64,000 nt of DNA from Eledone cirrhosa. Lineage: Eukaryota. The notes under the pieces were generated by a model. It had not been told where the DNA came from and ran no database searches. It saw only the letters and a list, made by a program, of their open reading frames with translations. The stretch is taken from assembly GCA_964016885.1 (NCBI GenBank), contig OZ024764.1:1054001-1118000 (forward strand), in the 5' to 3' direction. Both the position numbers and the translations under genes were made by a program. This document shows, in pieces, positions 1 to 64,000 of the stretch (the first letter of the stretch is position 1; each line of letters begins with the position of its first letter).

Positions 1-3000
1 TCTCCTACACGACCACTTTACAGCGTGGAGTGGGTGTTTTTTTACTGTCTCTCCTACACGACCACTTTACAGTGTGGAGTGGGTGTTTTTTTACTGTCTC
101 TCCTACACGACCACTTTACAGCGTGGACTGTGTGTTTTTTTACTGTGTCTCCTACACGACCACATTACAGCGTGGACTGTGTTTTTTTACTGTCTCTCCT
201 ACACGACCACTTTACAGTGTGGAGTGGGTGTTTTTTTACTGTCTCTCCTACACGACCACATTACAGCGTGGACTGTGTTTTTTTACTGTCTCTCCTACAC
301 GACCACTTTACAGCGTGGACTGTGTGTTTTTTTACTGTCTCTCCTACACGACCACTTTACAGCGTGGAGTGGGTGTTTTTACTGTCTCTCCTACACGACC
401 ACTTTACAGTGTGGAGTGGGTGTTTTTTTACTGTCTCTCCTACACGACCACTTTACAGCGTGGAGTGGGTGTTTTTACTGTCTCTCCTACACGACCACTT
501 TACAGTGTGGAGTGGGTGTTTTTACTGTCTCTCCTACACGACCACTTTACAGTGTGGAGTGGGTGTTTTTTTACTGTCTCTCCTACACGACCACATTACA
601 GCGTGGACTGTGTTTTTTTACTGTCTCTCCTACACGACCACTTTACAGCGTGGACTGTGTGTTTTTTTACTGTCTCTCCTACACGACCACTTTACAGCGT
701 GGAGTGGGTGTTTTTACTGTCTCTCCTACACGACCACTTTACAGTGTGGAGTGGGTGTTTTTACTGTCTCTCCTACACGACCACTTTACAGCGTGGAGTG
801 GGTGTTTTTTTACTGTCTCTCCTACACGACCACTTTACAGCGTGGACTGTGTTTTTTTACTGTCTCTCCTACACGACCACTTTACAGCGTGGAGTGGGTG
901 TTTTTTTACTGTCTCTCCTACACGACCACTTTACAGTGTGGAGTGGGTGTTTTTTTACTGTCTCTCCTGCACGACCACTTTACAGTGTGGAGTGGGTGTT
1001 TTTACTGTCTCTCCTACACGACCACTTTACAGCGTGGACTGTGTGTTTTTTTACTGTCTCTCCTACACGACCACTTTACAGCGTGGAGTGGGTGTTTTTT
1101 TACTGTCTCTCCTACACGACCACTTTACAGTGTGGAGTGGGTGTTTTTTTACTGTCTCTCCTGCACGACCACTTTACAGCGTGGACTGTGTGTTTTTTTA
1201 CTGTCTCTCCTACACGACCACTTTACAGCGTGGAGTGGGTGTTTTTTTACTGTCTCTCCTACACGACCACTTTACAGTGTGGAGTGGGTGTTTTTTTACT
1301 GTCTCTCCTACACGACCACTTTACAGCGTGGACTGTGTGTTTTTACTGTCTCTCCTACACGACCACTTTACAGCGTGGAGTGGGTGTTTTTTTACTGTCT
1401 CTCCTACACGACCACTTTACAGCGTGGACTGTGTTTTTTTACTGTCTCTCCTACACGACCACTTTACAGCGTGGAGTGGGTGTTTTTACTGTCTCTCCTG
1501 CACGACCACATTACAGTGTGGACTGTGTTTTTTTACTGTCTCTCCTACACGACCACTTTACAGTGTGGACTGTGTGTTTTTACTGTCTCTCCTACACGAC
1601 CACTTTACAGTGTGGAGTGGGTGTTTTTACTGTCTCTCCTACACGACCACTTTACAGCGTGGACTGTGTGTTTTTTTACTGTCTCTCCTACACGACCACT
1701 TTACAGCGTGGAGTGGGTGTTTTTTTACTGTCTCTCCTACACGACCACTTTACAGTGTGGAATGGGTGTTTTTTTACTGTCTCTCCTGCACGACCACTTT
1801 ACAGCGTGGACTGTGTGTTTTTTTACTGTCTCTCCTACACGACCACTTTACAGTGTGGATTGTGTGTTTTTACTGTCTCTCCTACACGACCACTTTACAG
1901 CGTGGAGTGGGTGTTTTTACTGTCTCTCCTACACGACCACTTTACAGCGTGGAGTGGGTGTTTTTTTACTGTCTCTCCTACACGACCACTTTACAGTGTG
2001 GAGTGGGTGTTTTTACTGTCTCTCCTACACGACCACTTTACAGCGTGGACTGTGTGTTTTTTTACTGTCTCTCCTACACGACCACTTTACAGCGTGGACT
2101 GTGTGTTTTTACTGTCTCTCCTACACGACCACTTTACAGTGTGGAGTGGGTGTTTTTTTACTGTCTCTCCTACACGACCACTTTACAGTGTGGAGTGGGT
2201 GTTTTTTTACTGTCTCTCCTGCACGACCACTTTACAGCGTGGACTGTGTGTTTTTTTACTGTCTCTCCTACACGACCACTTTACAGTGTGGATTGTGTGT
2301 TTTTACTGTCTCTCCTACACGACCACTTTACAGCGTGGAGTGGGTGTTTTTACTGTCTCTCCTGCACGACCACTTTACAGCGTGGACTGTGTGTTTTTTT
2401 ACTGTCTCTCCTACACGACCACTTTACAGTGTGGAGTGGGTGTTTTTTTACTGTCTCTCCTACACGACCACTTTACAGCGTGGACTGTGTGTTTTTTTAC
2501 TGTCTCTCCTACACGACCACTTTACAGTGTGGACTGTGTGTTTTTTTACTGTCTCTCCTACACGACCACTTTACAGTGTGGACTGTGTGTTTTTTTACTG
2601 TCTCTCCTACACGACCACTTTACAGCGTGGACTGTGTGTTTTTTTACTGTCTCTCCTACACGACCACTTTACAGTGTGGATTGTGTGTTTTTACTGTCTC
2701 TCCTACACGACCACTTTACAGCGTGGAGTGGGTGTTTTTTTACTGTCTCTCCTACACGACCACTTTACAGTGTGGAGTGGGTGTTTTTTTACTGTCTCCC
2801 CTGCACGACCACTTTACAGCGTGGACTGTGTGTTTTTTTACTGTCTCTCCTACACGACCACTTTACAGCGTGGAGTGGGTGTTTTTACTGTCTCTCCTAC
2901 ACGACCACTTTACAGCATGGACTCTGTGTTTTTACTGTCTCTCCTACACGACCACTTTACAGTGTGGAGTGGGTGTTTTTACTGTCTCTCCTGCACGACC

Positions 3001-6000
3001 ACTTTACAGCGTGGACTGTGTGTTTTTTTACTGTCTCTCCTACACAACCACTTTACAGCGTGGAGTGGGTGTTTTTTTACTGTCTCTCCTACACGACCAC
3101 TTTACAGCGTGGACTGTGTGTTTTTTTACTGTCTCTCCTACACGACCACTTTACAGCGTGGACTGTGTGTTTTTTTACTGTCTCTCCTACACGACCACTT
3201 TACAGCGTGGAGTGGGTGTTTTTACTGTCTCTCCTGCACGACCACTTTACAGCGTGGACTGTGTGTTTTTTTACTGTCTCTCCTACACGACCACTTTACA
3301 GCGTGGACTGTGTGTTTTTTTACTGTCTCTCCTACACGACCACTTTACAGCGTGGAGTGGGTGTCTTTACTGTCTCTCCTGCACGACCACTTTACAGCGT
3401 GGACTGTGTGTTTTTTTACTGTCTCTCCTACACGACCACTTTACAGCGTGGACTGTGTGTTTTTTTACTGTCTCTCCTACACGACCACTTTACAGCATGG
3501 ACTCTGTGTTTTTACTGTCTCTCCTACACGACCACTTTACAGTGTGGAGTGGGTGTTTTTACTGTCTCTCCTGCACGACCACTTTACAGCGTGGACTGTG
3601 TGTTTTTTTACTGTCTCTCCTACACGACCACTTTACAGCATGGACTCTGTGTTTTTACTGTCTCTCCTACACGACCACTTTACAGTGTGGAGTGGGTGTT
3701 TTTACTGTCTCTCCTGCACGACCACTTTACAGCGTGGACTGTGTGTTTTTTTACTGTCTCTCCTACACGACCACTTTACAGCGTGGAGTGGGTGTTTTTT
3801 TACTGTCTCTCCTACACGACCACTTTACAGCGTGGACTGTGTGTTTTTTTACTGTCTCTCCTACACGACCACTTTACAGCGTGGACTGTGTGTTTTTTTA
3901 CTGTCTCTCCTACACGACCACTTTACAGCGTGGAGTGGGTGTTTTTACTGTCTCTCCTGCACGACCACTTTACAGCGTGGACTGTGTGTTTTTTTACTGT
4001 CTCTCCTACACGACCACTTTACAGCGTGGACTGTGTGTTTTTTTACTGTCTCTCCTACACGACCACTTTACAGCGTGGAGTGGGTGTTTTTACTGTCTCT
4101 CCTGCACGACCACTTTACAGCGTGGACTGTGTGTTTTTTTACTGTCTCTCCTACACGACCACTTTACAGCGTGGAGTGGGTGTTTTTTTACTGTCTCTCC
4201 TACACGACCACTTTACAGTGTGGAGTGGGTGTTTTTTTACTGTCTCCCCTGCACGACCACTTTACAGCGTGGACTGTGTGTTTTTTTACTGTCTCTCCTA
4301 CACGACCACTTTACAGCGTGGAGTGGGTGTTTTTACTGTCTCTCCTGCACGACCACTTTACAGCGTGGACTGTGTGTTTTTTTACTGTCTCTCCTACACG
4401 ACCACTTTACAGCGTGGAGTGGGTGTTTTTTTACTGTCTCTCCTACACGACCACTTTACAGTGTGGAGTGGGTGTTTTTTTACTGTCTCCCCTGCACGAC
4501 CACTTTACAGCGTGGACTGTGTGTTTTTTTACTGTCTCTCCTACACGACCACTTTACAGCGTGGAGTGGGTGTTTTTTTACTGTCTCTCCTACACGACCA
4601 CTTTACAGCGTGGACTGTGTGTTTTTTTACTGTCTCTCCTACACGACCACTTTACAGCGTGGACTGTGTGTTTTTTTACTGTCTCTCCTACACGACCACT
4701 TTACAGCGTGGACTGTGTGTTTTTTTACTGTCTCTCCTACACGACCACTTTACAGCGTGGACTGTGTGTTTTTTTACTGTCTCTCCTACACGACCACTTT
4801 ACAGCGTGGACTGTGTGTTTTTTTACTGTCTCTCCTACACGACCACATTACAGCGTGGACTGTGTGTTTTTTTACTGTCTCTCCTACACGACCACTTTAC
4901 AGCGTGGACTGTGTGTTTTTTTACTGTCTCTCCTACACGACCACTTTACAGCGTGGAGTGGGTGTTTTTACTGTCTCTCCTGCACGACCACTTTACAGCG
5001 TGGACTGTGTGTTTTTTTACTGTCTCTCCTACACGACCACTTTACAGCGTGGACTGTGTGTTTTTTTACTGTCTCTCCTACACGACCACATTACAGCGTG
5101 GACTGTGTGTTTTTTTACTGTCTCTCCTACACGACCACTTTACAGCGTGGACTGTGTGTTTTTTTACTGTCTCTCCTACACGACCACTTTACAGCGTGGA
5201 CTGTGTGTTTTTTTACTGTCTCTCCTACACGACCACTTTACAGCGTGGACTGTGTGTTTTTTTACTGTCTCTCCTACACGACCACATTACAGCGTGGACT
5301 GTGTGTTTTTTTACTGTCTCTCCTACACGACCACTTTACAGCGTGGACTGTGTGTTTTTTTACTGTCTCTCCTACACGACCACTTTACAGCGTGGAGTGG
5401 GTGTTTTTACTGTCTCTCCTGCACGACCACTTTACAGCGTGGACTGTGTGTTTTTTTACTGTCTCTCCTACACGACCACTTTACAGCGTGGACTGTGTGT
5501 TTTTTTACTGTCTCTCCTACACGACCACATTACAGCGTGGACTGTGTGTTTTTTTACTGTCTCTCCTACACGACCACTTTACAGCGTGGACTGTGTGTTT
5601 TTTTACTGTCTCTCCTACACGACCACTTTACAGCGTGGACTGTGTGTTTTTTTACTGTCTCTCCTACACGACCACTTTACAGCGTGGACTGTGTGTTTTT
5701 TTACTGTCTCTCCTACACGACCACATTACAGCGTGGACTGTGTGTTTTTTTACTGTCTCTCCTACACGACCACTTTACAGCGTGGACTGTGTGTTTTTTT
5801 ACTGTCTCTCCTACACGACCACTTTACAGCGTGGAGTGGGTGTTTTTACTGTCTCTCCTGCACGACCACTTTACAGCGTGGACTGTGTGTTTTTTTACTG
5901 TCTCTCCTACACGACCACTTTACAGCGTGGACTGTGTGTTTTTTTACTGTCTCTCCTACACGACCACATTACAGCGTGGACTGTGTGTTTTTTTACTGTC

Positions 6001-9000
6001 TCTCCTACACGACCACTTTACAGCGTGGACTGTGTGTTTTTTTACTGTCTCTCCTACACGACCACTTTACAGCGTGGAGTGGGTGTTTTTACTGTCTCTC
6101 CTGCACGACCACTTTACAGCGTGGACTGTGTGTTTTTTTACTGTCTCTCCTACACGACCACTTTACAGCGTGGACTGTGTGTTTTTTTACTGTCTCTCCT
6201 ACACGACCACTTTACAGCGTGGAGTGGGTGTTTTTACTGTCTCTCCTGCACGACCACTTTACAGCGTGGACTGTGTGTTTTTTTACTGTCTCTCCTACAC
6301 GACCACTTTACAGCGTGGACTGTGTGTTTTTTTACTGTCTCTCCTACACGACCACTTTACAGCGTGGAGTGGGTGTTTTTACTGTCTCTCCTGCACGACC
6401 ACTTTACAGCGTGGACTGTGTGTTTTTTTACTGTCTCTCCTACACGACCACTTTACAGCGTGGACTGTGTGTTTTTACTGTCTCTCCTACATGACCACTT
6501 TACAGCGTGGACTGTGTGTTTTTTTACTGTCTCTCCTACACGACCACTTTACAGCGTGGACTGTGTGTTTTTTTACTGTCTCTCCTACACGACCACTTTA
6601 CAGTGTGGAGTGGGTGTTTTTACTGTCTCTCCTGCACGACCACTTTACAGCGTGGACTGTGTGTTTTTTTACTGTCTCTCCTACACGACCACTTTACAGC
6701 GTGGAGTGGGTGTTTTTTTACTGTCTCTCCTACACGACCACTTTACAGTGTGGAGTGGGTGTTTTTACTGTCTCTCCTACACGACCACTTTACAGCGTGG
6801 ACTGTGTGTTTTTTTACTGTCTCTCCTACACGACCACTTTACAGTGTGGAGTGGGTGTTTTTACTGTCTCTCCTGCACGACCACTTTACAGCGTGGACTG
6901 TGTGTTTTTACTGTCTCTCCTACACGACCACTTTACAGTGTGGACTGTGTGTTTTTACTGTCTCTCCTACACGACCACTTTACAGCGTGGAGTGGGTGTT
7001 TTTTTACTGTCTCTCCTACACGACCACTTTACAGCGTGGACTGTGTGTTTTTACTGTCTCTCCTACACGACCACTTTACAGTGTGGACTGTGTGTTTTTA
7101 CTGTCTCTCCTACACGACCACTTTACAGCGTGGAGTGGGTGTTTTTTTACTGTCTCTCCTACACGACCACTTTACAGCGTGGACTGTGTGTTTTTTTACT
7201 GTCTCTCCTACACGACCACTTTACAGCGTGGACTGTGTGTTTTTACTGTCTCTCCTACACGACCACTTTACAGTGTGGAGTGGGTGTTTTTACTGTCTCT
7301 CCTACACGACCACTTTACAGCGTGGACTGTGTGTTTTTACTGTCTCTCCTACACGACCACTTTACAGCATGGACTCTGTGTTTTTACTGTCTCTCCTACA
7401 CGACCACTTTACAGTGTGGAGTGGGTGTTTTTACTGTCTCTCCTACACGACCACTTTACAGCGTGGACTGTGTGTTTTTTTACTGTCTCTCCTACACGAC
7501 CACTTTACAGTGTGGATTGTGTGTTTTTACTGTCTCTCCTACACGACCACTTTACAGCGTGGACTGTGTGTTTTTACTGTCTCTCCTACACGACCACTTT
7601 ACAGTGTGGAGTGGGTGTTTTTTTACTGTCTCTCCTGCACGACCACTTTACAGCGTGGACTGTGTGTTTTTTTACTGTCTCTCCTACACGACCACTTTAC
7701 AGCGTGGAGTGGGTGTTTTTTTACTGTCTCTCCTACACGACCACTTTACAGTGTGGAGTGGGTGTTTTTTTACTGTCTCCCCTGCACGACCACTTTACAG
7801 CGTGGACTGTGTGTTTTTTTACTGTCTCTCCTACACGACCACTTTACAGCGTGGAGTGGGTGTTTTTTTACTGTCTCTCCTACACGACCACTTTACAGCG
7901 TGGACTGTGTGTTTTTTTACTGTCTCTCCTACACGACCACTTTACAGCGTGGACTGTGTGTTTTTACTGTCTCTCCTACACGACCACTTTACAGCGTGGA
8001 CTGTGTGTTTTTTTACTGTCTCTCCTACACGACCACTTTACAGCATGGACTCTGTGTTTTTACTGTCTCTCCTACACGACCACTTTACAGTGTGGAGTGG
8101 GTGTTTTTACTGTCTCTCCTACACGACCACTTTACAGCGTGGACTGTGTGTTTTTTTACTGTCTCTCCTACACGACCACTTTACAGCGTGGACTGTGTGT
8201 TTTTTTACTGTCTCTCCTACACGACCACTTTACAGTGTGGAGTGGGTGTTTTTACTGTCTCTCCTACACGACCACTTTACAGCGTGGACTGTGTGTTTTT
8301 TTACTGTCTCTCCTACACGACCACTTTACAGCGTGGAGTGGGTGTTTTTTTACTGTCTCTCCTACACGACCACTTTACAGTGTGGAGTGGGTGTTTTTAC
8401 TGTCTCTCCTACACGACCACTTTACAGCGTGGACTGTGTGTTTTTTTACTGTCTCTCCTACACGACCACTTTACAGCGTGGAGTGGGTGTTTTTTTACTG
8501 TCTCTCCTACACGACCACTTTACAGTGTGGAGTGGGTGTTTTTACTGTCTCTCCTACACGACCACTTTACAGCGTGGACTGTGTGTTTTTTTACTGTCTC
8601 TCCTACACGACCACTTTACAGTGTGGAGTGGGTGTTTTTACTGTCTCTCCTGCACGACCACTTTACAGCGTGGACTGTGTGTTTTTTTACTGTCTCTCCT
8701 ACACGACCACTTTACAGCGTGGAGTGGGTGTTTTTTTACTGTCTCTCCTACACGACCACTTTACAGCGTGGACTGTGTGTTTTTACTGTCTCTCCTACAC
8801 GACCACTTTACAGTGTGGACTGTGTGTTTTTACTGTCTCTCCTACACGACCACTTTACAGCGTGGAGTGGGTGTTTTTTTACTGTCTCTCCTACACGACC
8901 ACTTTACAGCGTGGACTGTGTGTTTTTTTACTGTCTCTCCTACACGACCACTTTACAGCGTGGACTGTGTGTTTTTACTGTCTCTCCTACACGACCACTT

Positions 9001-12000
9001 TACAGCGTGGACTGTGTGTTTTTTTACTGTCTCTCCTACACGACCACTTTACAGCATGGACTCTGTGTTTTTACTGTCTCTCCTACACGACCACTTTACA
9101 GTGTGGAGTGGGTGTTTTTACTGTCTCTCCTACACGACCACTTTACAGCATGGACTCTGTGTTTTTACTGTCTCTCCTACACGACCACTTTACAGCGTGG
9201 ACTGTGTGTTTTTTTACTGTCTCTCCTACACGACCACTTTACAGTGTGGATTGTGTGTTTTTACTGTCTCTCCTACACGACCACTTTACAGCGTGGACTG
9301 TGTGTTTTTACTGTCTCTCCTACACGACCACTTTACAGCATGGACTCTGTGTTTTTACTGTCTCTCCTACACGACCACTTTACAGTGTGGACTGTGTGTT
9401 TTTTTACTGTCTCTCCTGCACGACCACTTTACAGCGTGGACTGTGTGTTTTTTTACTGTCTCTCCTACACGACCACTTTACAGCGTGGAGTGGGTGTTTT
9501 TTTACTGTCTCTCCTACACGACCACTTTACAGTGTGGATTGTGTGTTTTTACTGTCTCTCCTACACGACCACTTTACAGCGTGGACTGTGTGTTTTTACT
9601 GTCTCTCCTACACGACCACTTTACAGCGTGGACTGTGTGTTTTTTTACTGTCTCTCCTACACGACCACTTTACAGCATGGACTCTGTGTTTTTACTGTCT
9701 CTCCTACACGACCACTTTACAGTGTGGAGTGGGTGTTTTTACTGTCTCTCCTACACGACCACTTTACAGCGTGGACTGTGTGTTTTTTTACTGTCTCTCC
9801 TACACGACCACTTTACAGTGTGGATTGTGTGTTTTTACTGTCTCTCCTACACGACCACTTTACAGCGTGGACTGTGTGTTTTTACTGTCTCTCCTACACG
9901 ACCACTTTACAGCGTGGACTGTGTGTTTTTACTGTCTCTCCTACACGACCACTTTACAGCGTGGACTGTGTGTTTTTACTGTCTCTCCTGCACGACCACT
10001 TTACAGCGTGGACTGTGTGTTTTTTTACTGTCTCTCCTACACGACCACTTTACAGCGTGGAGTGGGTGTTTTTTTACTGTCTCTCCTACACGACCACTTT
10101 ACAGTGTGGAGTGGGTGTTTTTTTACTGTCTCCCCTGCACGACCACTTTACAGCGTGGACTGTGTGTTTTTTTACTGTCTCTCCTACACGACCACTTTAC
10201 AGCGTGGAGTGGGTGTTTTTTTACTGTCTCTCCTACACGACCACTTTACAGTGTGGAGTGGGTGTTTTTTTACTGTCTCCCCTGCACGACCACTTTACAG
10301 CGTGGACTGTGTGTTTTTTTACTGTCTCTCCTACACGACCACTTTACAGCGTGGAGTGGGTGTTTTTTTACTGTCTCTCCTACACGACCACTTTACAGTG
10401 TGGACTGTGTGTTTTTTTACTGTCTCTCCTACACGACCACTTTACAGCGTGGACTGTGTGTTTTTACTGTCTCTCCTACACGACCACTTTACAGTGTGGA
10501 GTGTGTGTTTTTACTGTCTCTCCTACACGACCACTTTACAGCGTGGACTGTGTGTTTTTTTACTGTCTCTCCTACACGACCACTTTACAGTGTGGACTGT
10601 GTGTTTTTACTGTCTCTCCTACACGACCACTTTACAGCGTGGACTGTGTGTTTTTTTACTGTCTCTCCTACACGACCACTTTACAGCGTGGACTGTGTGT
10701 TTTTACTGTCTCTCCTACACGACCACTTTACAGTGTGGAGTGTGTGTTTTTACTGTCTCTCCTACACGACCACTTTACAGCGTGGAGTGGGTGTTTTTTT
10801 ACTGTCTCTCCTACACGACCACTTTACAGTGTGGAGTGGGTGTTTTTTTACTGTCTCTCCTACACGACCACTTTACAGCGTGGACTGTGTGTTTTTACTG
10901 TCTCTCCTACACGACCACTTTACAGTGTGGACTGTTTGTTTTTACTGTCTCTCCTACACGACCACTTTACAGCGTGGACTGTGTGTTTTTTTACTGTCTC
11001 TCCTACACGACCACTTTACAGCGTGGACTGTGTGTTTTTACTGTCTCTCCTACACGACCACTTTACAGTGTGGACTGTGTGTTTTTACTGTCTCTCCTAC
11101 ACGACCACTTTACAGCGTGGACTGTGTGTTTTTTTACTGTCTCTCCTACACGACCACTTTACAGTGTGGAGTGGGTGTTTTTACTGTCTCTCCTACACGA
11201 CCACTTTACAGCGTGGACTGTGTTTTTTTACTGTCTCTCCTACACGACCACTTTACAGCGTGGAGTGGGTGTTTTTACTGTCTCTCCTGCACGACCACTT
11301 TACAGTGTGGAGTGGGTGTTTTTTTACTGTCTCTCCTACACGACCACTTTACAGCGTGGACTGTGTGTTTTTACTGTCTCTCCTACACGACCACTTTACA
11401 GTGTGGACTGTGTGTTTTTACTGTCTCTCCTACACGACCACTTTACAGCGTGGACTGTGTGTTTTTTTACTGTCTCTCCTACACGACCACTTTACAGCGT
11501 GGAGTGGGTGTTTTTTTACTGTCTCTCCTACACGACCACTTTACAGCGTGGACTGTGTGTTTTTACTGTCTCTCCTACACGACCACTTTACAGTGTGGAC
11601 TGTGTGTTTTTACTGTCTCTCCTACACGACCACTTTACAGCGTGGACTGTGTGTTTTTTTACTGTCTCTCCTACACGACCACTTTACAGTGTGGACTGTG
11701 TGTTTTTACTGTCTCTCCTACACGACCACTTTACAGCGTGGACTGTGTGTTTTTTTACTGTCTCTCCTACACGACCACTTTACAGCGTGGACTGTGTTTT
11801 TTTACTGTCTCTCCTACACGACCACTTTACAGCGTGGACTGTGTGTTTTTTTACTGTCTCTCCTACACGACCACTTTACAGCGTGGAGTGGGTGTTTTTT
11901 TACTGTCTCTCCTACACGACCACTTTACAGCGTGGACTGTGTGTTTTTACTGTCTCTCCTACACGACCACTTTACAGTGTGGAGTGGGTGTTTTTACTGT

Positions 12001-35771: not shown

Positions 35772-35772
35772 A

Positions 35773-40222: not shown

Positions 40223-40243
40223 GTCCTTCCTCTTTTAACCAAC

Positions 40244-47324: not shown

Positions 47325-47345
47325 GTCCTTCCTCTTTTAACCAAC

Positions 47346-50783: not shown

Positions 50784-51021
50784 GTGAAAGAAGAGGAAAA
50801 AGAGGAGACGAGGGAAGCACCTACTCTTTGTGCTCCTGAGGAGAAGGGTTGCACATTTTTTCCGGGGTGTGTGCGACCCATGTTAATGCCCCCTCCCTAT
50901 TGAGGACTTCGTTTGTTGTTGTTATTTCATTGTTATATTTTTGTACTCGTTAATTATATGTAAACTTTCCCCCTTTGTATCTGTCCCTACCTTTTGTGCC
51001 CTAGTGGCAAATAAAGAAACC

Positions 51022-52238: not shown

Positions 52239-52452
52239 CTCGTATACGAGAGACGTGTGTTGACGTGTGTGAACAAGCTCGGCTACCGAGTCGGATTTAC
52301 TTACTCAAAAAGTGAGTTTTGATTAATTTTTTTTTTATACTGTAATATACGTTAACCCCTTGCCTTGGTCGTCAAACTTTGAGTTTATTTATTTTCGCCC
52401 CTATTTGGGGCGAATTTTCCAGTTAAAAATTTATTACGGCAAACTAATAGAA

Positions 52453-54175
52453 ATGGACGGAATTTTCACATCTCATCCTAACGTGAAAGCCACGCCCCCT
52501 AAGAAAGGTGATACAGAGAAGCTAGAAGCACAAGGCTCTAAGTCTTCCCTCCTGACTTCTGTAAAAGAAACATGGAACACGGAATTAAAAGAAAAATTTG
52601 TAAAAATGGGTGAAAACCCAGAAAGTCACATAAACGCAGACAAAAACAACAACGACAATAACAGCAATAGTCACAACAGCAACCAAGGAAAAAATAACGA
52701 TAACACCAAACAAAGCGAACCCACTACTGGTGCCTCCTTTGCACAGGCGGTCCGGAAAACACAAACCTGCAAGCAACTGGACATTACAACTCTGAGAGAA
52801 AAGATGAAGGAAGCGAAACAGTATGTAACTTTCAAAGAAGGAGGAGACTTCACAATCACCTCCCCACAAGAAATCAAAAGAGACACGACGCTAAGAACGA
52901 TATCTTTCAGAACAATTTCCAACATAACAAGGAAACCAACTCAATTATCCCAAAAAGAGATTGAGCTGGTCCTAAAAAATGTGTGGAGTGATATATCGTT
53001 CATACAAAAAGGGCCACTCTATGGGAATATAACGGTCCTAATGAAGGATCAATTGACGGCCAGGAAATACTCTGTGGCACCAATTGTTTCCAAGCTACAT
53101 ACATTTTCCCCACATATTTAGGGAAAAGAACGCAGAAGATAAGGGTCTCCGGAATCCGGCCAAATGCATGCATTTCCTGGGTACTAACAGGATTTTTAGA
53201 AGACGAGGACGGAATCCTCTCAGTAGGAGAAGTCACCACAGACGTTTTCGGCGGTTTGAGCGTGGAGGTTCTGGTCCAAATGAGACCAGAACGAATAGCT
53301 AGAATACCACAGAGGGTGTCCCTCGATGGAGAAACATTTATATATATTTCAGCCGAGGGTAGGAGGCCCATATGTTACTACTGTTCAAGCAGGGGTCTCT
53401 AAGGGCTGCTTGTCCTCAATTGACAAAAAAAAAGGCTCTTTTGCCTACACCACACACACCACCACCGCCACCACCACCACCACCACCACAACAACAACAA
53501 AAACAACACGGAAAAATAACACAAGACACGGCCCCACCCAAAACAACTCCCAAAACACACACAAATACAACAAAACCCCAAAATACACCACTACCCGACA
53601 GCACGGACGAGGACCCAGCGGAAACGGCACCTAGTGACGAAGAGGGGGAACCCTTCCAACCTGTAAAAAGGAAAAAAAGAAAGCACCACTCGAACATAAA
53701 CGAAACAAACACACAACCACCAACAAAAACAAAACAAACAGAACAAACAAAATCCGCCCCACCCCAAAACATAACACATACAACAAAACGTAAGCACACA
53801 CAAGAACAACAAACAAACACAACACAAATAAAACAGTATACATACATTAACACAAATAACAAAGAACTAGTAAAAACAATACACAAAGACCCTTTGGTGG
53901 AAACTGAAGGGCAATTCTTTGCAAGCGCGGCCAACAAACCGCATTTAAAAATGATAAGACTCCCAATGGACACCTATGCAAAACTAAGAGAGAACTTTCC
54001 TGAGGACGTGGGGAAAACATGTACTCGACCCTATAACCGCGTCCTCTTGAAACGTTTCCCCACCCACACCTCACCAAACACCCCCACTCCACCACAGAAC
54101 AACACCCCACCAAACAACCCCTCCAATACGCCCATGGATATTGTGCAACCTGCTCCTCAGGAGCCGAACAGGTAG
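52453..54175 (+). pseudogene. Disrupted ORF1 of copy 3
   Basis: 1-bp loss in a T-run at about 53105, plus the same His-codon deletion as copy 2 at about 53397. Confidence 0.8.
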
Positions 54176-54196
54176 GTCCTTCCTCTTTTAACCAAC

Positions 54197-57100
54197 ATGG
54201 CTGATATAAGAGTTGGGTGTCTGAATGTACGTGGCCTGGGACTGTCTTGGAAACAAGGCAAACTTTTAAACGATCTCAGGTCGCATAGAATGGATGTAAT
54301 GGCTATTTGCGAGTCCAGGATCAGCAGCGAGCACCAACTGGCGCTCCTCTTCGACGACTTTGAGATCTTCGCATCTCTCTGTCAACCGGGGGGTGGGGGT
54401 GGAGTTGTCGTTCTGCTGCGAAAACACCTGGGCCTCGCCATACAGAAGGTGCACCTGGACCCGGAGGGTCGACTGGTGGTTTTAGACGTCGGCAGTAGTG
54501 AAAGTGGAGCCCTTAGACTAATAGCTGTGTACGCCCCTTTTTGGGCAGCGCGGCCGGAATACTTCCAACGTCTGGAAACTTTTCTGGGAACGTCCCGCTC
54601 CTTGCTTTTAGTGGGGGACTGGAATGGTATCCTGGATGCACGTTGGGACTATGTAGGGGCATGTGCCAATAGAGGGGGGTGTAAAAGCCTCAAAAGGTTA
54701 ATCGGCCGATTTGACCTGGCCGATAGATATCGACTAGATTTTCCGACTGTACCACTATGGACGTGGACCAATCGCAGTGGAACATCTAGGTCGTACCTAG
54801 ATAGGGTCCTAGTTAGAGAGAACGATAGGGACACATTTAGCTGTCCAAAAATGTTCATGGTTGACTATTCGGATCACAAGTTAGTGACCTGCATAGCCAA
54901 CCTTGATAGAACCCATAGACAGGGACCCGGTTACTGGAAGCTGAACTTGTCCTTACCGAGAAGCAAAGCTTACAGTAAACGGATTAGCACGTTAGTTAAG
55001 CAGAGTTTGACAGGGGCAATTGTCAACAACAGGTGGTGGAGCTCTCTTAAGAGAGCAATTAGAATAGAATCGATAGGTTTTAGTCAGGAATTAGCAAGGG
55101 ATAGGAACAAGACGGAAAGGGAATTAGTAGATAGAGTAGAAGAGGCGATTAGGAGTGGCAATGTAGCCGGTGTGCTGGCATCAAGAATGGCCTTAGACCA
55201 GTTCTTTGAGGTGAAGCATGAAGGCTGCGTTGTCAGGAGTAAAATACGTGCTCTGGGTAATGAGGGAGCCAAAGCTGTGAGCTGGGCCCGAGTGACAGAG
55301 GCAAAAAGTGGGAACAAGTCCACGATTCGGTCTTTGAAGGACCAGGATGGGCGTGTGATCCTTGAACCTGGGCAGATGTGTGCGGCCTTTCAGCGGCACT
55401 TTGCACGACTGTTCGAGAGGGGCGGCGCGCCGGGTGAGACTATGGATTTCAATCCATACCTCGACGGTCTGCCGCGCCTCTCGGACGCGGAGGCGAAGTC
55501 CTGCGAAAGGACGATTTTAGCTGCTGAGATAGGGGCGGCGCTGAGCCAATGCGGCAAACGCAAATCCCCGGGTCTCGATGGTCTACCATACGAGCTATAT
55601 GTAGCGATGCCGGACTTGTTCTCCGATATCCTCGAAGCGGTCTACTGCAACTGGCAGCAGAACGGGAGAATTCCCAGTTCTGTGACCAAGGGCGTAGTTA
55701 CGCTGGTGAGGAAGGATGAGAACAAGGGGGATGACATAAGTAACTTCAGGCCCATAACTCTGCTAAATACAGAGTTAAAGATTTTGGCCAAGGTGTTAGC
55801 GAAGAGGTTGGCGCTTGTCGTTGGAAACCTGGTGGGAGAAGCGCAGACATGCGCAATCCCGTCCAGGTCCATTCACGACAATCTCCACCTTATGCGATAC
55901 ATCATAGAGAGGGTAGGGAATGAACCCGGCTTTGGTGGGGCCCTGATCAACTTGGATCAATCTAAAGCTTTCGATAGGGTTGACCATCGTTACCTGGATG
56001 CGGTGCTCGCGGCGGCAGGCTTCGGACCCGTTTTCAGGGGTTGGATTGCTGCGATGCACAGCAGCAACGTCTGCTCAAGGGTCAAGGTGAACGGCCACCT
56101 CTCGGAGCCGTTCCAAATCATGCGATCCATCCGACAGGGATGCCCTCTCTCCTCCCTACTGTATGTGCTGGCTCTTGAGCCACTACTGCGGAAGTTGGAG
56201 CGGTTGCAGGGCATCCCTTTGGAACCGGGATTGCAGAAAGCGGCGTCGGCCTACGCCGATGACGTGACAGTAATGGTGTCGAAAACCTCGCAAATCGGTG
56301 AGATCGGCACCTTACTGGAGGAATATGAAAGGTTTACAGGAGCCAAGCTGAACCGGGACAAGTCCGTCGGTTTGCAACTCGGAACATGGAGAGGCAAACC
56401 GATGCCCTCCAACGACGTCGTCGGACGCTGGACGGAGGGCCCGGTGAAGCTGCTTGGGGTCTGGTTCGGACCAGACCTCCAGGTGGAGAAAAACTGGAAC
56501 GAGGTAACGGCCAGGGTGTTTGCACTCACCCAGAAGTGGGCCCAGTGCAAACTATCCCTGAAAGGTCGAGCGGAGGTGGCGAATACTTATATAGCATCCG
56601 TCATCTTCTACCGCTTGACCGTCGTGCCTTGCCCAGTGAAAAGACTCGCCAAAATGGAGTGCGCGCTGTTCCAATTTCTTTGGAACAAGCGGACCCCTTT
56701 GGTGAGGAGATCCATCTGCTGTCAACACCCTTCGAAAGGAGGGCTGGGGATGCCGTGGCTACAGATGCGTAAACACGCATTAAGGCTATGGCACCTCCAG
56801 GTATTCCTCACCGGTCAACCGGTGTGGGCCCCGTTTGTGAGGCGAGCCTTTCCCAGACTCGTCTCGCTCACCGAGCTGCAATCCTGGGTCAAGCAAAGAC
56901 CGAGAAAAGTGGGCGACTGGCACATTGAATGTGCCCAGGCGCTCACGGTCCTCTGGAAAGCGGACCCGGCAATCAGTGGAGACTCCACGTCGACATTCTA
57001 TAGAGGGTTGGTACGCAGCAGGTGCGACGATGCTCTCGGAGAAGCTCTAGGCATGGAGGAAGATGAACTGGCCAGTCTGTTCGGTAGGACGTTTGACCCT

Positions 57101-57634
57101 GGACCGATGGACAACTTCCAAAAGTCCCTGGCTTGGCAGTGCTACCGAGGGGCTCTACCCGTTCGAGACAAGCTCCACAGGCATGGGAGCCTGGGTAGAG
57201 ATCCTTTGAATAAGATCTGTCCGAGATGCGTGCATGATGACGAAACCGTTGCGCACGCATTCGTACACTGCCCAGGCATTGCTGACCTGTGGGGCTATGT
57301 GGAACGACTACTGTCGAGGGTGGGACCAATCCGGTTGACCACCGAGTCCATTGTCACGATCAAACCGCCTCCCCCTTTCAAAAACGAAGGAGAGGCGGTT
57401 TTTCTCTGTGTGGTAGCCATGGCTAAAGAAGTTGTATGGTGGACGAGGCTGAAAGGGCTGAGGTCAGACACCTTTCTCTCCGGCCAACAACTGGTCCCCT
57501 TTTTCAAATACCATTTTAAAAGAAGGATCAGAATGGAGAGAGAGGTGCTCTACCCCAGCAAGTTTTATGAAAGGTGGGTGAAAGTAGGGAGAATGGCCAG
57601 AGTGAATGGGTCTTCTCTCTATATCAGCCTGTAG
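54197..57634 (+). CDS. LINE ORF2 (APE-RT-ZnF), 1145 aa, copy 3
   Basis: Intact, with all motifs present. Confidence 0.96.
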   Translation: MADIRVGCLNVRGLGLSWKQGKLLNDLRSHRMDVMAICESRISSEHQLALLFDDFEIFASLCQPGGGGGVVVLLRKHLGLAIQKVHLDPEGRLVVLDVGSSESGALRLIAVYAPFWAARPEYFQRLETFLGTSRSLLLVGDWNGILDARWDYVGACANRGGCKSLKRLIGRFDLADRYRLDFPTVPLWTWTNRSGTSRSYLDRVLVRENDRDTFSCPKMFMVDYSDHKLVTCIANLDRTHRQGPGYWKLNLSLPRSKAYSKRISTLVKQSLTGAIVNNRWWSSLKRAIRIESIGFSQELARDRNKTERELVDRVEEAIRSGNVAGVLASRMALDQFFEVKHEGCVVRSKIRALGNEGAKAVSWARVTEAKSGNKSTIRSLKDQDGRVILEPGQMCAAFQRHFARLFERGGAPGETMDFNPYLDGLPRLSDAEAKSCERTILAAEIGAALSQCGKRKSPGLDGLPYELYVAMPDLFSDILEAVYCNWQQNGRIPSSVTKGVVTLVRKDENKGDDISNFRPITLLNTELKILAKVLAKRLALVVGNLVGEAQTCAIPSRSIHDNLHLMRYIIERVGNEPGFGGALINLDQSKAFDRVDHRYLDAVLAAAGFGPVFRGWIAAMHSSNVCSRVKVNGHLSEPFQIMRSIRQGCPLSSLLYVLALEPLLRKLERLQGIPLEPGLQKAASAYADDVTVMVSKTSQIGEIGTLLEEYERFTGAKLNRDKSVGLQLGTWRGKPMPSNDVVGRWTEGPVKLLGVWFGPDLQVEKNWNEVTARVFALTQKWAQCKLSLKGRAEVANTYIASVIFYRLTVVPCPVKRLAKMECALFQFLWNKRTPLVRRSICCQHPSKGGLGMPWLQMRKHALRLWHLQVFLTGQPVWAPFVRRAFPRLVSLTELQSWVKQRPRKVGDWHIECAQALTVLWKADPAISGDSTSTFYRGLVRSRCDDALGEALGMEEDELASLFGRTFDPGPMDNFQKSLAWQCYRGALPVRDKLHRHGSLGRDPLNKICPRCVHDDETVAHAFVHCPGIADLWGYVERLLSRVGPIRLTTESIVTIKPPPPFKNEGEAVFLCVVAMAKEVVWWTRLKGLRSDTFLSGQQLVPFFKYHFKRRIRMEREVLYPSKFYERWVKVGRMARVNGSSLYISL

Positions 57635-58426
57635 GTGAAAGAAGAGGAAAAAGAGGAGACGAGGGAAGCACCTACTCTTTGTGCTCCTGAGGAGAAGGGT
57701 TACACATTTTTTCCGGGGTGTGTGCGACCCATGTTAATGCCCCCTCCCTATTGAGGACTTCGTTTGTTGTTGTTATTTCATTGTTATATTTTTGTACTCG
57801 TTAATTATATGTAAACTTCCCCCCTTGTATCTGTCCCTACCTTTTGTGCCCTAGTGGCAAATAAAGAAACCACTCTATATATACTATTGTATTTTCACAG
57901 TAAAGGCTTTACCTCACATAACATTTACATTTCTCTATGGATTTTGATATTATTTATTTTGAGAACAATACCTTAACATAAGTATGAGTGGCCAGTTACA
58001 GCCGGTTTGAACAGAAAGAGGTGAGAGAATTCCAGCGAGATATGGCCGGTTTAAATGCTAAAGGGTTAAAAAAAACCATTATACGTGACAAAAAAAAGTA
58101 CATTACGAGAAATCCCATATGTTATAAAATAAATAGGATGGGTTGGGGTCTCAGTATGTAAACTAAACAACTAAAGGTTTAATGTATAAAGAAAATTGAT
58201 TGTTACAGGAATGTTACCACTTAAAATAAATTTTGTGGAGATAGTGTAGCAAAATTTAATAAGTGAAGGTTTGGGTGGAATAAGGGTGGGTTTTTCTAAA
58301 AAATATTTTGTCAAGTAATGTAACCCCTCCTAACGGCCTTTACACTAATACAGGCAGGATTTTTATTGTCATCAAGTTTTCATGATAACGATTGTTATCA
58401 TTGTTGGTTTGTGTAAGTGAGATCTA

Positions 58427-61400
58427 TCATCATCATCCTAATTGCCATCACCATCATCACCATCAATACCATCATCATAATCATCACCATCATCGTTTAA
58501 CCTCCATTTTCCACGCTAGCATGGGTTAGACAGGTTGTCCCATTTGAGGCAAGTTGAGTCAGGTGACCATGTCTTGCTCATACAGAACTGATCTTGGCTT
58601 GCTTTCTACAGCTGGATGCTCTTCCTAGCGCCAACCTCATTTACAGTGAGTGTTGGGTGCTTTTTTGCCGTGGCACCTCCACGACCACTTTACAGTATGG
58701 GCTGGGTACTTTTTGTTGTGACAGCTACATGACCACTTTACAGTGTGGACTGGGTGTTGTTTGTCATGACACCTACATGACCACTTTACAGTGTGGACTG
58801 GGTGCTATTTGTTGTGACACCTACACGACCACTTTACAGTGTGGACTGGGTGCTATTTGTTGTGACACCTACACGACCACTTTACAGTGGAGACTGGGTA
58901 CTTTTTGTTGTGACACCTACATGACCACTTTACAGTGTGGACTGGGTACTTTTTGTTGTGACACCTACATGACCACTTTACAGTGTGGACTGGGTACTTT
59001 TTGTTGTGACACCTACATGACCACTTTACAGTGTATACTGGGTCCTTTTTGTTGTGACACCTCCACGACCACTTTACAGTGTGGACTGGGTACTTTTTGT
59101 TGTGACACCTACATGACTACTTTACAGTGGACTTGGTAATTTTTGTTGTGACACCTACATGACCACTTTACAGTGTGGACTGGGTGCTTTTTGTTGTGAC
59201 ACCTACATGACCACTTTACAGTGTGGAGTGGGTACTTTTTGTTGTGACACCTACATGACTACTTTACAGTGTGGACTGGGTCCTTTTTGTTGTGACACCT
59301 ACATGACCACTTTACAGTGTGGACTGGGTGTTGTTTGTTGTGACACCTACATGACCACTTTACAGTGTGAACTGGGTGTTTGTTGTGACACCTACATGAC
59401 CACTTTACAGTGTGGAGTGGGTACTTTTTGTTGTGACACCTACATGACTACTTTACAGTGTGGACTGGCTAGTTTTAGTTGTGACACCTACATGACCACT
59501 TTACAGTGTGGACTGGGTACTTTTTGTTGTGACACCTACATGACCACTTTACAGTGTGGACTGGGTACTTTTTGTTGTGACACCTACATGACCACTTTAC
59601 AGTGTGGACTGGGTACTTTTTGTTGTGACACCTACATGACCACTTTACAGTGTGGACTGGGTACTTTTTGTTGTGACACCTACATGACCACTTTACAGTG
59701 TGGACTGGGTACTTTTTGTTGTGACTCCTACATGACCAATTTACAGTGTGGACTGGGTGCTTTTGGTTGTGACACCTACATGACCACTTTACAGTGTGGA
59801 CTGGGTACTTTTTGTTGTGACACCTACATGACCACTTTACAGTGTGGACTGGGTACTTTTTGTTGTGACACCTACATGACCACTTTACAGTGTGGACTGG
59901 GTACTTTTTGTTGTGACACCTACATGACCACTTTACAGTGTGGACTGGGTACTTTTTGTTGACACCTACATGACCACTTTACAGTGTGGAGTGGGTACTT
60001 TTTGTTGTGACACCTACATGACTACTTTACAGTGTGGACTGGGTCCTTTTTGTTGTGACACCTACATGACCACTTTACAGTGTGAACTGGGTGTTGTTTG
60101 TTGTGACACCTACATGACCACTTTACAGTGTGGAGTGGGTACTTTTTGTTGTGACACCTACATGACTACTTTACAGTGTGGACTGGGTCCTTTTTGTTGT
60201 GACACCTACATGACCACTTTACAGTGTGGACTGGGTACTTTTTGTTGTGACACCTACATGACCACTTTACAGTGTGGACTGGGTACTTTTTGTTGTGACA
60301 CCTACATGACCACTTTACAGTGTGGACTGGGTACTTTTTGTTGACACCTACATGACCACTTTACAGTGTGAACTGGGTGTTGTTTGTTGTGACACCTACA
60401 TGACCACTTTACAGTGTGGACTGGGTGTTGTTTGTTGTGACACCTACATGACCACTTTACAGTGTGGACTGGGTGCTATTTGTTGTGACACCTACATGAC
60501 CACTTTACAGTGTGGACTGGGTGCTATTTGTTGTGACAGCTACATGACCACTTTACAGTGTGGACTGGGTACTTTTTGTTGTGACACCTACATTACCACT
60601 TTACAGTGTGGACTGGGTACTTTTTGTTGTGACACCTACATGACCACTTTACAGTGTGAACTGGGTGTTGTTTGTTGTGACACCTACATGACCACTTTAC
60701 AGTGTGAACTGGGTGTTGTTTGTTGTGACACCTACATGACCACTTTACAGTGTGAACTGGGTGTTGTTTGTTGTGACACCTACATGACCACTTTACAGTG
60801 TGGACTGGGTACTTTTTGTTGTGACACCTACATGACTACTTTACAGTGTGGACTGGGTCCTTTTTGTTGTGACACCTACATGACCACTTTACAGTGTGGA
60901 CTGGGTGTTGTTTGTTGTGACACCTACATGACCACTTTACAGTGTGAACTGGGTGTTGTTTGTTGTGACACCTACATGACCACTTTACAGTGTGGAGTGG
61001 GTACTTTTTGTTGTGACACCTACATGACTACTTTACAGTGTGGACTGGGTCCTTTTTGTTGTGACACCTACATGACCACTTTACAGTGTGGACTGGGTAC
61101 TTTTTGTTGTGACACCTACATGACCACTTTACAGTGTGGACTGGGTACTTTTTGTTGTGACACCTACATGACCACTTTACAGTGTGGACTGGGTACTTTT
61201 TGTTGTGACACCTACATGACTACTTTACAGTGTGGACTGGGTCCTTTTTGTTGTGACACCTACATGACCACTTTACAGTGTGGACTGGGTACTTTTTGTT
61301 GTGACACCTACATGACCACTTTACAGTGTGGACTGGGTACTTTTTGTTGTGACACCTACATGACCACTTTACAGTGTGGACTGGGTACTTTTTGTTGACA

Positions 61401-62736
61401 CCTACATGACCACTTTACAGTGTGAACTGGGTGTTGTTTGTTGTGACACCTACATGACCACTTTACAGTGTGGACTGGGTGTTGTTTGTTGTGACACCTA
61501 CATGACCACTTTACAGTGTGGACTGGGTGCTATTTGTTGTGACACCTACATGACCACTTTACAGTGTGGACTGGGTGCTATTTGTTGTGACAGCTACATG
61601 ACCACTTTACAGTGTGGACTGGGTACTTTTTGTTGTGACACCTACATGACCACTTTACAGTGTGGACTGGGTACTTTTTGTTGTGACACCTACATGACCA
61701 CTTTACAGTGTGAACTGGGTGTTGTTTGTTGTGGCACCTACATGACCACTTTACAGTGTGAACTGGGTGTTGTTTGTTGTGACACCTACATGACCACTTT
61801 ACAGTGTGGACTGGGTGTTGTTTGTTGTGACACCTACATGACCACTTTACAGTGTGAACTGGGTGTTGTTTGTTGTGACACCTACATGACCACTTTACAG
61901 TGTGGAGTGGGTACTTTTTGTTGTGACACCTACATGACTACTTTACAGTGTGGACTGGGTACTTTTTGTTGTGACACCTACATGACCACTTTACAGTGTG
62001 GACTGGGTACTTTTTGTTGTGACACCTACATGACCACTTTACAGTGTGGACTGGGTACTTTTTGTTGTGACACCTACATGACCACTTTACAGTGTGGACT
62101 GGGTACTTTTTGTTGTGACACCTACATGACCACTTTACAGTGTGGACTGGGTACTTTTTGTTGTGACTCCTACATGACCACTTTACAGTGTGGACTGGGT
62201 GCTTTTGGTTGGGACACCTACATGACCACTTTACAGTGTGGACTGGGTGTTGTTTGTTGTGACACCTACATGACCACTTTACAGTGTGGACTGGGTGTTG
62301 TTTGTTGTGACACCTACATGACCACTTTACAGTGTGGACTGGGTGCTATTTGTTGTGACACCTACATGACCACTTTACAGTGTGGACTGGGTGTTGTTTG
62401 TTGTGACACCTACATGACCACTTTACAGTGTGGACTGGGTGCTATTTGTTGTGACACCTACATGACCACTTTACAGTGTGGACTGGGTACTTTTTGTTGT
62501 GACACCTACATGACCACTTTACAGTGTGGACTGGGTGTTGTTTGTTGTGACACCTACATGACCACTTTACAGTGTGGACTGCAGACTTCATTAGGGGAGG
62601 TGTATGGGATTGGGGAGGTAGGTGTAGGGACGGAGTGTTAGGATATGGGTGGGGGTCAGTGTCAGGGAGGTGAGTGGAAGGGTGATGGAGGCGAAAGGTG
62701 GGTCTTCTGTATCACTGCATAACGCCAAAGATCTCA
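58427..62736 (-). mobile_element. RTE-type 3' element (ORF end, 3' UTR, (GAT)n tail) carrying an internal 48-bp array
   Basis: (CAT)n-CGTTTAACCTCCATTTTCCACGCTAGCATGGG at the left. TTTCTACAGCTGGATGCTCTTCCTAGCGCCAACC leads into the array. The minus strand reads DLWRYAVIQKT at the right. Confidence 0.7.
58655..62580 (+). repeat. Minisatellite B': 48-bp array, about 82 units
   Basis: Unit TGTTGTGACACCTACATGACCACTTTACAGTGTGGACTGGGTACTTTT, the same consensus as the array at 25018-26753. Confidence 0.97.
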
Positions 62737-62744: not shown

Positions 62745-64000
62745 TTCCATGTCTAACACACGTGGGCATGCCTACAAAGTCAGAAAACAGCACAGCTCCC
62801 ATGACTTTCGGAAACATCTTTTCATGCTCAGAGTTGCTGAAGCATGGAACAAACTACCTGCATCAGTTGTTAGCTGTCGAGACACTGCATCCTTTAAAAC
62901 CTCCATGGAACAAACTCCCTGCATCAGTTGTTAGCTGTCGAGACACTGCATCCTTTAAACCCTCCATGGAACAAACTACCTGCATCAGTTGTTAGCTGTC
63001 GAGACACTGCATCCTTTAAAACCTCCAGGGAACAAACTACCTGCATCAGTTGTTAGCTGTCGAGACACTGCATCCTTTAAAACCTCCATGGAACAAACTA
63101 GCTGCATTAGTTGTTAGCTGTCAAGACACTGCATCCTTTAAAACCTCCATGGAACAAACTACCTGCATCAGTTGTTAGCTGTCGAGACACTGCATCCTTT
63201 AAAACCTCCATGGAACAAACTCCCTGCATCAGTTGTTAGCTGTCGAGACACTGCATCCTTTAAACCCTCCATGGAACAAACTGCCTGCATCAGTTGTTAG
63301 CTGTCGAGACACTGCATCCTTTAAAACCTCCATGGAACAAACTACCTGCATCAGTTGTTAGTTGTCGAGACACTGCATCCTTTAAAACCTCCATGGAACA
63401 AACTACCTGCATCAGTTGTTAGCTGTCGAGACACTGCATCCTTTAAAACATCCATGGAACAAACTACCTGCATCAGTTGTTAGCTGTCGAGACACTGCAT
63501 CCTTTAAAACCTCCATGGAACAAACTCCCTGCATCAGTTGTTAGCTGTCGAGACACTGCATCCTTTAAACCCTCCATGGAACAAACTGCCTGCATCAGTT
63601 GTTAGCTGTCGAGACACTGCATCCTTTAAAACCTCCATGGAACAAACTACCTGCATCAGTTGTTAGCTGTCGAGACACTGCATCCTTTAAAACATCCATG
63701 GAACAAACTACCTGCATCAGTTGTTAGCTGTCGAGACACTGCATCCTTTAAAACCTCCATGGAACAAACTACCTGCATCAGTTGTTAGCTGTCGAGACAC
63801 TGCATCCTTTAAAACCTCCATGGAACAAACTCGCTCTATCAGTTGTTAGCTGTTGAGACACTGCATCCTTTAAAACCTCCATGGAACAAACTACCTGCAT
63901 TAGTTGTTAGCTGTCAAGACACTGCATCCTTTAAAACCTCCATGGAACAAACTCCCTGCATCAGTTGTTAGCTATCAAGACACTGCATACTTTAAGGCCT
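62745..64000 (+). repeat. CR1 ORF2 C-terminal fragment running into 61-bp minisatellite C' (about 19 units from about 62843, open-ended)
   Basis: NTRGHAYKVRKQHSSHDFRKHLFMLRVAEAWNKLPASVVSCRDTASFK is the CR1 TRGH..RV...WN.LP..VV...FK terminus. Its last 61 bp are tandemly repeated. Confidence 0.93.

Follow-up and report, generated by a model that had tools for sequence, protein, structure and literature searches.

Minisatellite arrays made of internal segments of three transposable elements in a 64-kb region of the Eledone cirrhosa genome

The origin of minisatellites was analyzed in a single window of the Eledone cirrhosa genome, that is, the whole stretch of 64,000 nucleotides at positions 1,054,001 to 1,118,000 of contig OZ024764.1 (assembly GCA_964016885.1), with coordinates counted from its first letter. 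The window contains three minisatellite families. In the reading that we regard as probable, they represent tandem copies of internal pieces of an RTE-group long interspersed element (LINE), a CR1-type LINE and a TTAA-flanked miniature inverted-repeat transposable element (MITE), which were seeded by slippage, grew by unequal exchange and mostly spread when already expanded, while a single insertion of another LINE and two block duplications gave the three LINE copies now found in the MITE array. The origin of all three units in transposable elements (TEs) is supported; judging from the units and junctions in common, most arrays likely spread after expansion.

Origin of the three repeat units

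Minisatellites were called with Tandem Repeats Finder (TRF), flank homology was examined by masked self-BLAST, and alignments were evaluated by shuffle tests (n=500). Apart from microsatellites and short low-score repeats, TRF detected exactly three minisatellite families, with periods of 47-49 bp (arrays A1, A2, A5 and A10), 61 bp (A3 and A11) and 72 bp (A4 and A6-A9), in agreement with the original prediction, made from the sequence alone, that had named a TRF run as its check. Together they span 40,209 bp, or 63% of the window, and in all three families the unit is an internal TE segment. The 11 arrays represent eight loci, of which three (A3, A6-9 and A10) have TE sequence on both sides and four on one side (two are cut by the window edge; A4 and A5 are one-sided only), and one, A2, on neither. 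The joints in public data described below were taken from four of the 12 listed runs (X1, X2, X4 and X10), the other eight, including X3 and X8 with small shares, being left out; in these short reads and contigs the number of units upstream of a loose end is not countable.

The 47-49-bp arrays had been predicted to grade into an RTE-type 3' untranslated region (UTR). At A5 and A10, diverged edge units indeed grade into a common tail ending in (ATG)n, an alignment matched by 0 of 500 shuffles. For the opposite side, a word-index search with the RTE-like fragment at 24100 left none of 13 candidates, but a full profile scan with it yielded relatives, of which the best full C-terminus was that of P0129, 68% identical to the fragment. 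When its last 14 residues were compared with 127,918 six-frame positions, the top two were 23995 and 62736, both on the minus strand, which places remnants of RTE open reading frame (ORF) 2 in the correct orientation at the far sides of A1 (rank 1) and A10 (rank 2). A10 thus sits between the ORF2 end and the tail, while A1 shows the ORF2 side and A5 the tail side, and the position of A10 strengthens the 3' UTR claim. The claim was not confirmed for A2, whose RTE flank gave no significant match (443 of 500 shuffles scored as high) and comprises at most a 7-base remnant. No RTE remnant was detected in the far flank of A5 (159 and 82 of 500 shuffles scored as high), and the far spacers of A1 and A10 are weakly alike (10 of 500 shuffles; both are G-rich). 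Relatives of the RTE-like fragment carry RVT_1, and we take the parent of this family to be an RTE element. The fragment itself, at 24100-24745, was rejected as the direct parent of the tails, the alignments of its tail with A5 and A10 being non-significant (352 and 64 of 500 shuffles). The two ORF2 remnants break off at almost identical positions, which may point to a nonautonomous RTE derivative whose 5' end is fixed or to an old duplication that connects A1 with A10. In public data, the window is left for one other sequence 11 bases into the second RTE unit in 20,874 X10 reads and 247 X4 contigs. The commonest RTE continuation past the unit (58696, X4 and X10) opens with a potential 11-bp hairpin, an exit unused by the four arrays in the window.

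The 61-bp unit translates as AWNKLPASVVSCRDTASFKTS. Upstream of A3 lies decayed ORF2 of about 560 bp, and downstream of it come eight codons, a stop and a UTR; hence, the ORF and UTR flanks described in the original prediction are present, but the unit is not made of the last codons of ORF2, since eight more precede the stop. At A11 the upstream ORF was confirmed, the downstream side lying beyond the window end. The peptide has nine protein homologs at 73-92% identity, three of them named O. vulgaris or O. sinensis. Seven of the nine run from one unit straight into a normal C-terminus, one ends there, one is frameshifted earlier, and none reads into a second unit. TE copies carrying the unit once or in low copy number, as anticipated, are therefore present for CR1, and for the MITE and RTE they are represented by read joints, in which the units were not counted. 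A Pfam scan of the homologs was blank for both of the two scanned; the CR1 label is our assumption from motifs, no search having assigned it.

The 72-bp arrays start inside a MITE terminal inverted repeat (TIR), exactly as predicted. The unit of A4 and A6 begins at base 9 of the 14-bp TIR, and its first six bases are the last six of the TIRs at 31036-31049 and 37063-37076. A matching TIR with TTAA is located at 58052-58069: together with 37059-37076 it gives TTAA on both sides and 14-bp TIRs starting with CCC that differ by one mismatch. TTAA flanks with CCC-starting TIRs are presumably the mark of a nonautonomous piggyBac-type MITE, and this element has both. Because of this matching end, 37063-58065 is a single MITE, swollen to 21 kb by the 72-bp array, a short interspersed element (SINE) and three LINEs. 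The MITE of A4 lacks its second end, where a truncated CR1 abuts. Among X10 reads, the TIR is joined to the unit start in 1,734 reads (169 starts) and the unit end to the MITE body in 118, with 5,960 loose ends at 57940 and 319 X4 contigs. A second short MITE fragment beside A4 (31056-31185) combines a TIR with roughly 20 bases from the start of the unit and a body-like piece, and carries no array. The coordinates of all these features are listed in Table 1.

Table 1. Positions of the minisatellite arrays, their parent elements and the inserted LINEs in the window
Feature	Positions	Strand
A1: 47/49-bp array, ~489 units, RTE-group element 3' UTR, runs off window	1..23559	-
RTE-group ORF2 C-terminal remnant RDLWHYAVIQKTRL, far side of A1	23954..23995	-
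A2: 48-bp array between (TA)n runs	25017..26753	+
Final 8 CR1-type codons with stop and 3' UTR, downstream of A3	27365..27532	-
A3: 61-bp array, 27 units, CR1-type ORF2 C-terminal segment	27533..29182	-
Decayed 5'-truncated CR1-type ORF2, upstream of A3, abutting A4 end	29183..29740	-
A4: 72-bp array, ~18 units (array proper 29741-31041), MITE TIR 31036-31049, TTAA 31050-31053	29741..31053	-
A5: 47/48-bp array with 96-bp dimer zone, distinct unit type	31471..34600	+
Diverged edge units into RTE-type tail and (ATG)n, beside A5	34601..34935	+
Single TTAA-flanked MITE, TIRs 37063-37076 and 58052-58065	37059..58069	+
A6: 72-bp units, SINE interruption 37564-37744	37068..38286	+
LINE copy 1: open ORF1 38498-40222 (574 amino acids); ORF2 40244-43681 (1145 amino acids)	38287..43917	+
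A7: 72-bp units between LINE copies 1 and 2	43918..45400	+
LINE copy 2: open ORF2, frameshifted ORF1	45401..51021	+
A8: 72-bp units, private variants common to A7	51022..52238	+
LINE copy 3: open ORF2, frameshifted ORF1	52239..57871	+
A9: last 60-bp unit, then MITE body, right TIR	57872..58065	+
RTE-type 3' tail, (ATG)n, and diverged edge unit adjoining A10	58426..58685	-
A10: 48-bp array, 82 units, within RTE 3' UTR, TE on both sides	58640..62581	-
RTE-group ORF2 C-terminal remnant DLWRYAVIQKT, far side of A10	62695..62736	-
5'-truncated CR1-type ORF2 piece, upstream of A11	62745..62842	+
A11: 61-bp array, 19 units, consensus as A3, runs to window end	62843..63995	+

Expansion and spread of the arrays

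The original prediction held every family to be an in situ expansion of a TE segment. The TE origin was borne out for all three families, but not the expansion in place at each site. Independence of the arrays, in the sense of no units, junctions or polymorphisms in common, fails for A2/A10, A3/A11 and A4/A6 and holds only among A1, A5 and A10. The members of each of these three pairs have an identical consensus and the same polymorphisms, which indicates one origin and later dispersal. In the 61-bp family, A3 and A11 have one consensus, an identical unit junction at a 4-bp microhomology (CATG) and the common variants A14C (5/26 and 4/18 units) and A57C (2/26 and 3/18); over 80 bp, the upstream flanks of the two match at 96% identity, and the flank codon is M in both, as in none of the nine homologs. 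This agreement favours a single origin, the second site having presumably been seeded by an array-bearing copy. For the 72-bp family, A4 has the family consensus and two polymorphic sites in common with A6, which indicates one origin for the two. A2 and A10 have the same commonest unit, with agreement at 48 of 48 positions, and a 3-site variant occurs in both; A2, with no significant RTE flank and lying between (TA)n runs, is probably a dispersed piece of 48-bp array.

The stricter account, in which each array expanded independently in place from a TE copy with a single unit, appears improbable. It draws on the outer flanks, which past the TE parts have no mutual homology by masked self-BLAST as originally stated, on the TE sequence at both sides of A3, A10 and the MITE, on the distinct unit types of A1, A5 and A10, and on other reads that carry 46-49-bp duplications of the RTE segment with differing junction letters. 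It is contradicted by the common consensus, junctions and polymorphisms of the three pairs, by the recovery of an identical CR1 junction twice at a microhomology of only 4 bp, and by the lack of a significant TE flank at A2. The 72-bp arrays within 37068-52238 do not count as separate loci, being parts of one MITE split by the SINE and the three LINEs.

Several points weigh against spread after expansion, nevertheless. The units of A1, A5 and A10, three distinct types with no exact unit in common, are only 76-79% alike, as fits independent expansion; the common variants of the 61-bp arrays could reflect gene conversion or recurrent CpG change; and the apparent low-copy reads of RTE and MITE may in part be array ends. 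Recurrent independent expansion is plausible only for the RTE segment. Of the recurrent TE-to-satellite conversion originally proposed, the participation of three TE classes stands; recurrence is unsupported for A2/A10 and for both the 61-bp and the 72-bp family, and the process was already known.

As a mechanism for spread after expansion, we propose that the arrays were seeded by slippage at short direct repeats, the 4-bp CATG in CR1, an imperfect one of about 7 bp in the MITE and one of about 11 bp in the RTE UTR. The RTE parent element may carry its short direct repeat at unit distance, allowing repeated expansion in the same phase, and this longer seed may explain why three unit types arose from the RTE segment alone. 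Growth would have followed by unequal exchange at several scales, of the 96-bp dimer in A5, 1,054 bp in A10, 2.2-9.9 kb in A1 and about 7 kb in the MITE, in a region that may tolerate or promote exchange; expanded arrays would then have been dispersed by transposition or ectopic copying. A1 contains internal exact repeats at offsets from 439 to 9,889 bp (3413-20189), including offsets of 7.5-9.9 kb, and these long repeats represent either recent block duplication or assembly artefact.

The reverse direction, in which transposons captured or landed in pre-existing satellites, is hardly credible, although it has been proposed for Xenopus miDNA4 (PMC12628747) and the SINE and LINEs did enter an existing array here: the 61-bp unit is in-frame coding sequence present once in Octopus CR1 homologs, which refutes it for CR1, the 72-bp unit includes six TIR bases, and the RTE arrays lie between the ORF2 end and the tail.

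Other features of the window include a SINE-like family of four copies (23610-23793, 27180-27354, 36910-37055 and 37564-37744) that are 78-90% alike and have no Rfam gathering match, one lying inside the 72-bp array and one having a 13-bp target duplication. A near-palindromic, MITE-like element of 152 bp (24823-24974), 88% self-complementary, is located beside A2. The Rfam scan of 23500-64000 at the gathering threshold gave no match at all; neither the MITE end nor the 48-bp unit, searched as patterns, matched anything in metagenome, prokaryote-genome and viral collections, which are non-animal and hence uninformative. Long ORFs across the arrays were rejected as genes, being frame artefacts of stop-free units.

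Three LINE copies in the MITE array

The MITE array contains three full-length L1/Tx1-type LINEs of 5,621-5,633 bp, which the original prediction had not included, 99.6% identical and pairwise 0.39-0.41% apart (22-23 substitutions). ORF2 carries endonuclease, reverse transcriptase and zf-RVT domains (Pfam) and has 75 homologs; its best solved match is human L1 ORF2p (E 5.7e-54, versus 2.9e-23 for R2), and ORF1 is similar to molluscan CCHC proteins. By sequence comparison, this domain make-up, expected of the Tx1 clade, identifies the L1 group but does not single out Tx1 within it. In all three copies the 5' and 3' junctions are identical and lie at the same position in the repeat unit, with the same 7-bp loss of target and no target-site duplication (TSD), while empty sites in reads keep those seven bases.

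One LINE insertion followed by duplication of a block of about 7 kb appears to fit best, and we hold it moderately likely, because of four features besides the identical junctions and target loss. A 1-bp ORF1 deletion is common to copies 2 and 3, about 99.6% of X10 reads being without it (27,222 plus 9,295 loose ends, of 36,663). All three copies have G at 52554, where C is found in 85 of 106 X10 reads and in X1, X2 and X4 contigs. The unit variant G35A occurs in A7 (4/18) and A8 (4/16) and in 0 of 28 units of A4 plus A6; the contrast of 8/34 with 0/28 gives a naive P of 0.005 with units that are non-independent. Finally, A1 has duplications of the same scale. Three observations count against a single insertion. 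The LINE tree is star-like (11, 11 and 12 substitutions private to one copy), which requires both duplications to have come soon after the insertion; copy 1 lacks one C at 57740, as do some X1 and X4 contigs, which could mean a separate source; and the LINE is high-copy in the organism labelled D (37,082 X10 reads start at 53167), so further insertions exist. The changes in ORF2 among the copies, 3 synonymous and 15 nonsynonymous with 24-29% synonymous expected, fit neutral drift and are equally compatible with duplication or with insertions off one master.

The alternative that this LINE family targets a fixed site in the 72-bp unit, with two to three independent insertions in the manner of Tx1L in Tx1D, is possible but not what we expect. 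Tx1-clade elements are known to target DNA transposons and microsatellites, the targets including nonautonomous piggyBac, Mariner and Harbinger transposons (PMC4494074, PMC1950540), and Tx1D has been termed a nonautonomous piggyBac family (PMC4494074). Tx1L, found in Tx1D of Xenopus, and Tx1-Mar, found in Mariner-N4 of crocodilians, are likewise L1-group LINEs with an apurinic/apyrimidinic-type endonuclease that occupy one fixed position of a nonautonomous DNA transposon; here, however, 7 bp of the target are lost and no TSD is seen, the length of the endonuclease loop is that of L1, and targeting is only a candidate. The junction repeated in three of three copies, the star-like divergence and the high copy number in organism D agree with targeting, and the 5' junction is also found in X1 and X2 contigs, which bear two other organism labels, one X1 contig running 22 bases beyond the 3' junction. 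In addition, 118 X10 reads join 57869 to 57115, inside the LINE, through an 11-base TCTA repeat, and the site in the window contains TCTAT. A LINE end followed by a microsatellite and a truncated second copy is a pattern typical of target-preferring elements. The likely source of these reads is a (TCTA)n site elsewhere with LINEs inserted in tandem, and their joint hints that the true 3' end of the LINE is 57869.

The rare ORF1 deletion of copies 2 and 3, the minority allele of all three and the variants common to A7 and A8 speak against independent insertions, as do the absence of a TSD and the full length of every copy. Depth is low in both X1 (about 10) and X2 (3-5), consistent with this single orthologous locus. 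At 57740, the X1 junction contig accounts for 12.2 of a summed depth of 22; the X2 contig extends no further than 57869. The loop of the endonuclease can be aligned to that of human L1 without gaps and is two residues shorter than the Tx1L loop; the 11-residue hairpin loop of Tx1L (PMC1950540) is thus absent, though it is not known to be required of all Tx1 families. By the measure of more than 20% flanks of one type (PMC4494074), three of three flanks in the window are of one type, probably non-independently, and the 118 X10 reads have another flank.

A bolder proposal, which we consider doubtful, is that the LINE adopted the MITE-born 72-bp minisatellite as a landing pad, perhaps shifting from (TCTA)n, and that satellite, MITE and LINE co-amplify as a composite, reaching copy numbers in the hundreds in one species but only a few in its close relatives, within a region where any TE segment can become an array. 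It would be an independent molluscan parallel to Tx1L in Tx1D, a transposon with internal tandem repeats and TTAA ends.

It is quite unlikely that the LINE triplet and the long repeats of A1 are artefacts of an assembly that stacked haplotypes or reads in tandem. The exact repeats of A1 are kilobases long and none among the listed contigs spans the whole block, yet the LINEs differ by 22-23 substitutions per pair, three copies exceed two haplotypes, the spacer arrays are unequal in length and in their variants, and both MITE ends are intact.

Under the preferred single insertion with block duplication, the copies would be roughly 0.5 million years old, at a borrowed rate (0.0036 per million years, as given in PMC13282606); assembly error would inflate this age. 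None of the three is likely fully intact, though all ORF2s are open, because the CCHC knuckle of ORF1 is without its first cysteine (39429) in copy 1, the sole one in which this frame is open. The X10 reads starting at 53167 are restriction-site-associated DNA reads from one ORF1 site (53167-53421) and make up about 0.3% of the records. The depth of LINE-family contigs in organism D, for which the library type is not on record, is about 2,000 versus 4.9 for a flank contig, and the family seems far more abundant there than in organisms A or B. A perfect 14-bp palindrome (52238-52251) lies over the LINE 5' junction, in the same place in copies 1 and 2, and 11 of its bases recur at 23991-24001, the cut end of the RTE remnant past A1, possibly by chance.

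Relation to known TE-derived satellites

The conversion of TEs to satellites is a well-documented process (PMC3389668, PMC9659126, PMC12628747), not a new one. In human, at least 7,276 tandem repeats, or 23% of minisatellites and satellites, are TE-derived, some being flanked or seeded by direct repeats of 5-20 bp with local duplication; in LTR12 the repeats probably pre-existed in the element and spread by transposition (PMC3389668). The human minisatellites resemble those described here in having internal TE segments as units, and the spread of LTR12 resembles the dispersal proposed above; they mostly consist of two units, however, whereas the window has 17-490 units, 63% of its sequence and three TE classes side by side. 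Reviews list the MITE-derived Xstir and miDNA4 of Xenopus and the CR1-derived HinfI of chicken (PMC9659126, PMC12628747). Xstir and miDNA4 are also arrays of an internal MITE segment in elements that keep their TIRs, with growth driven by microhomology, but in the present case the unit overlaps the TIR, the MITE has TTAA/CCC ends and the array hosts LINEs. Chicken HinfI (SCR1) is likewise a tandem repeat from the 3' end of CR1 (PMC9659126); its monomer comprises partial ORF2 plus UTR, while the monomer here is a 61-bp coding segment within the element.

A repeat annotation of O. vulgaris from 2026 gives 13 young L1-Tx1 families with 421 insertions (PMC13282606), the excerpted text of that paper containing nothing on satellites or targets. 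In the octopus literature on minisatellites, satellites, Tx1 and RTE, searched without most subscription papers and Repbase, no description of the present families was found; the O. vulgaris Zenodo library may contain them.

The window is thus a clear textbook example of how TEs become satellites, in a lineage for which we found no description. Since its 64 kb combine three TE classes with edge gradients, block duplications and higher-order repeats, the origin of such arrays can be separated from their spread, given the genome, and TE annotations of octopus can miscount them as LINE or MITE. If the LINE does target the 72-bp unit, this would be a new target for sequence-specific non-LTR (long terminal repeat) elements, in which one TE makes the niche of another; the composite of LINE in MITE array is the lead most worth a genome-wide check.

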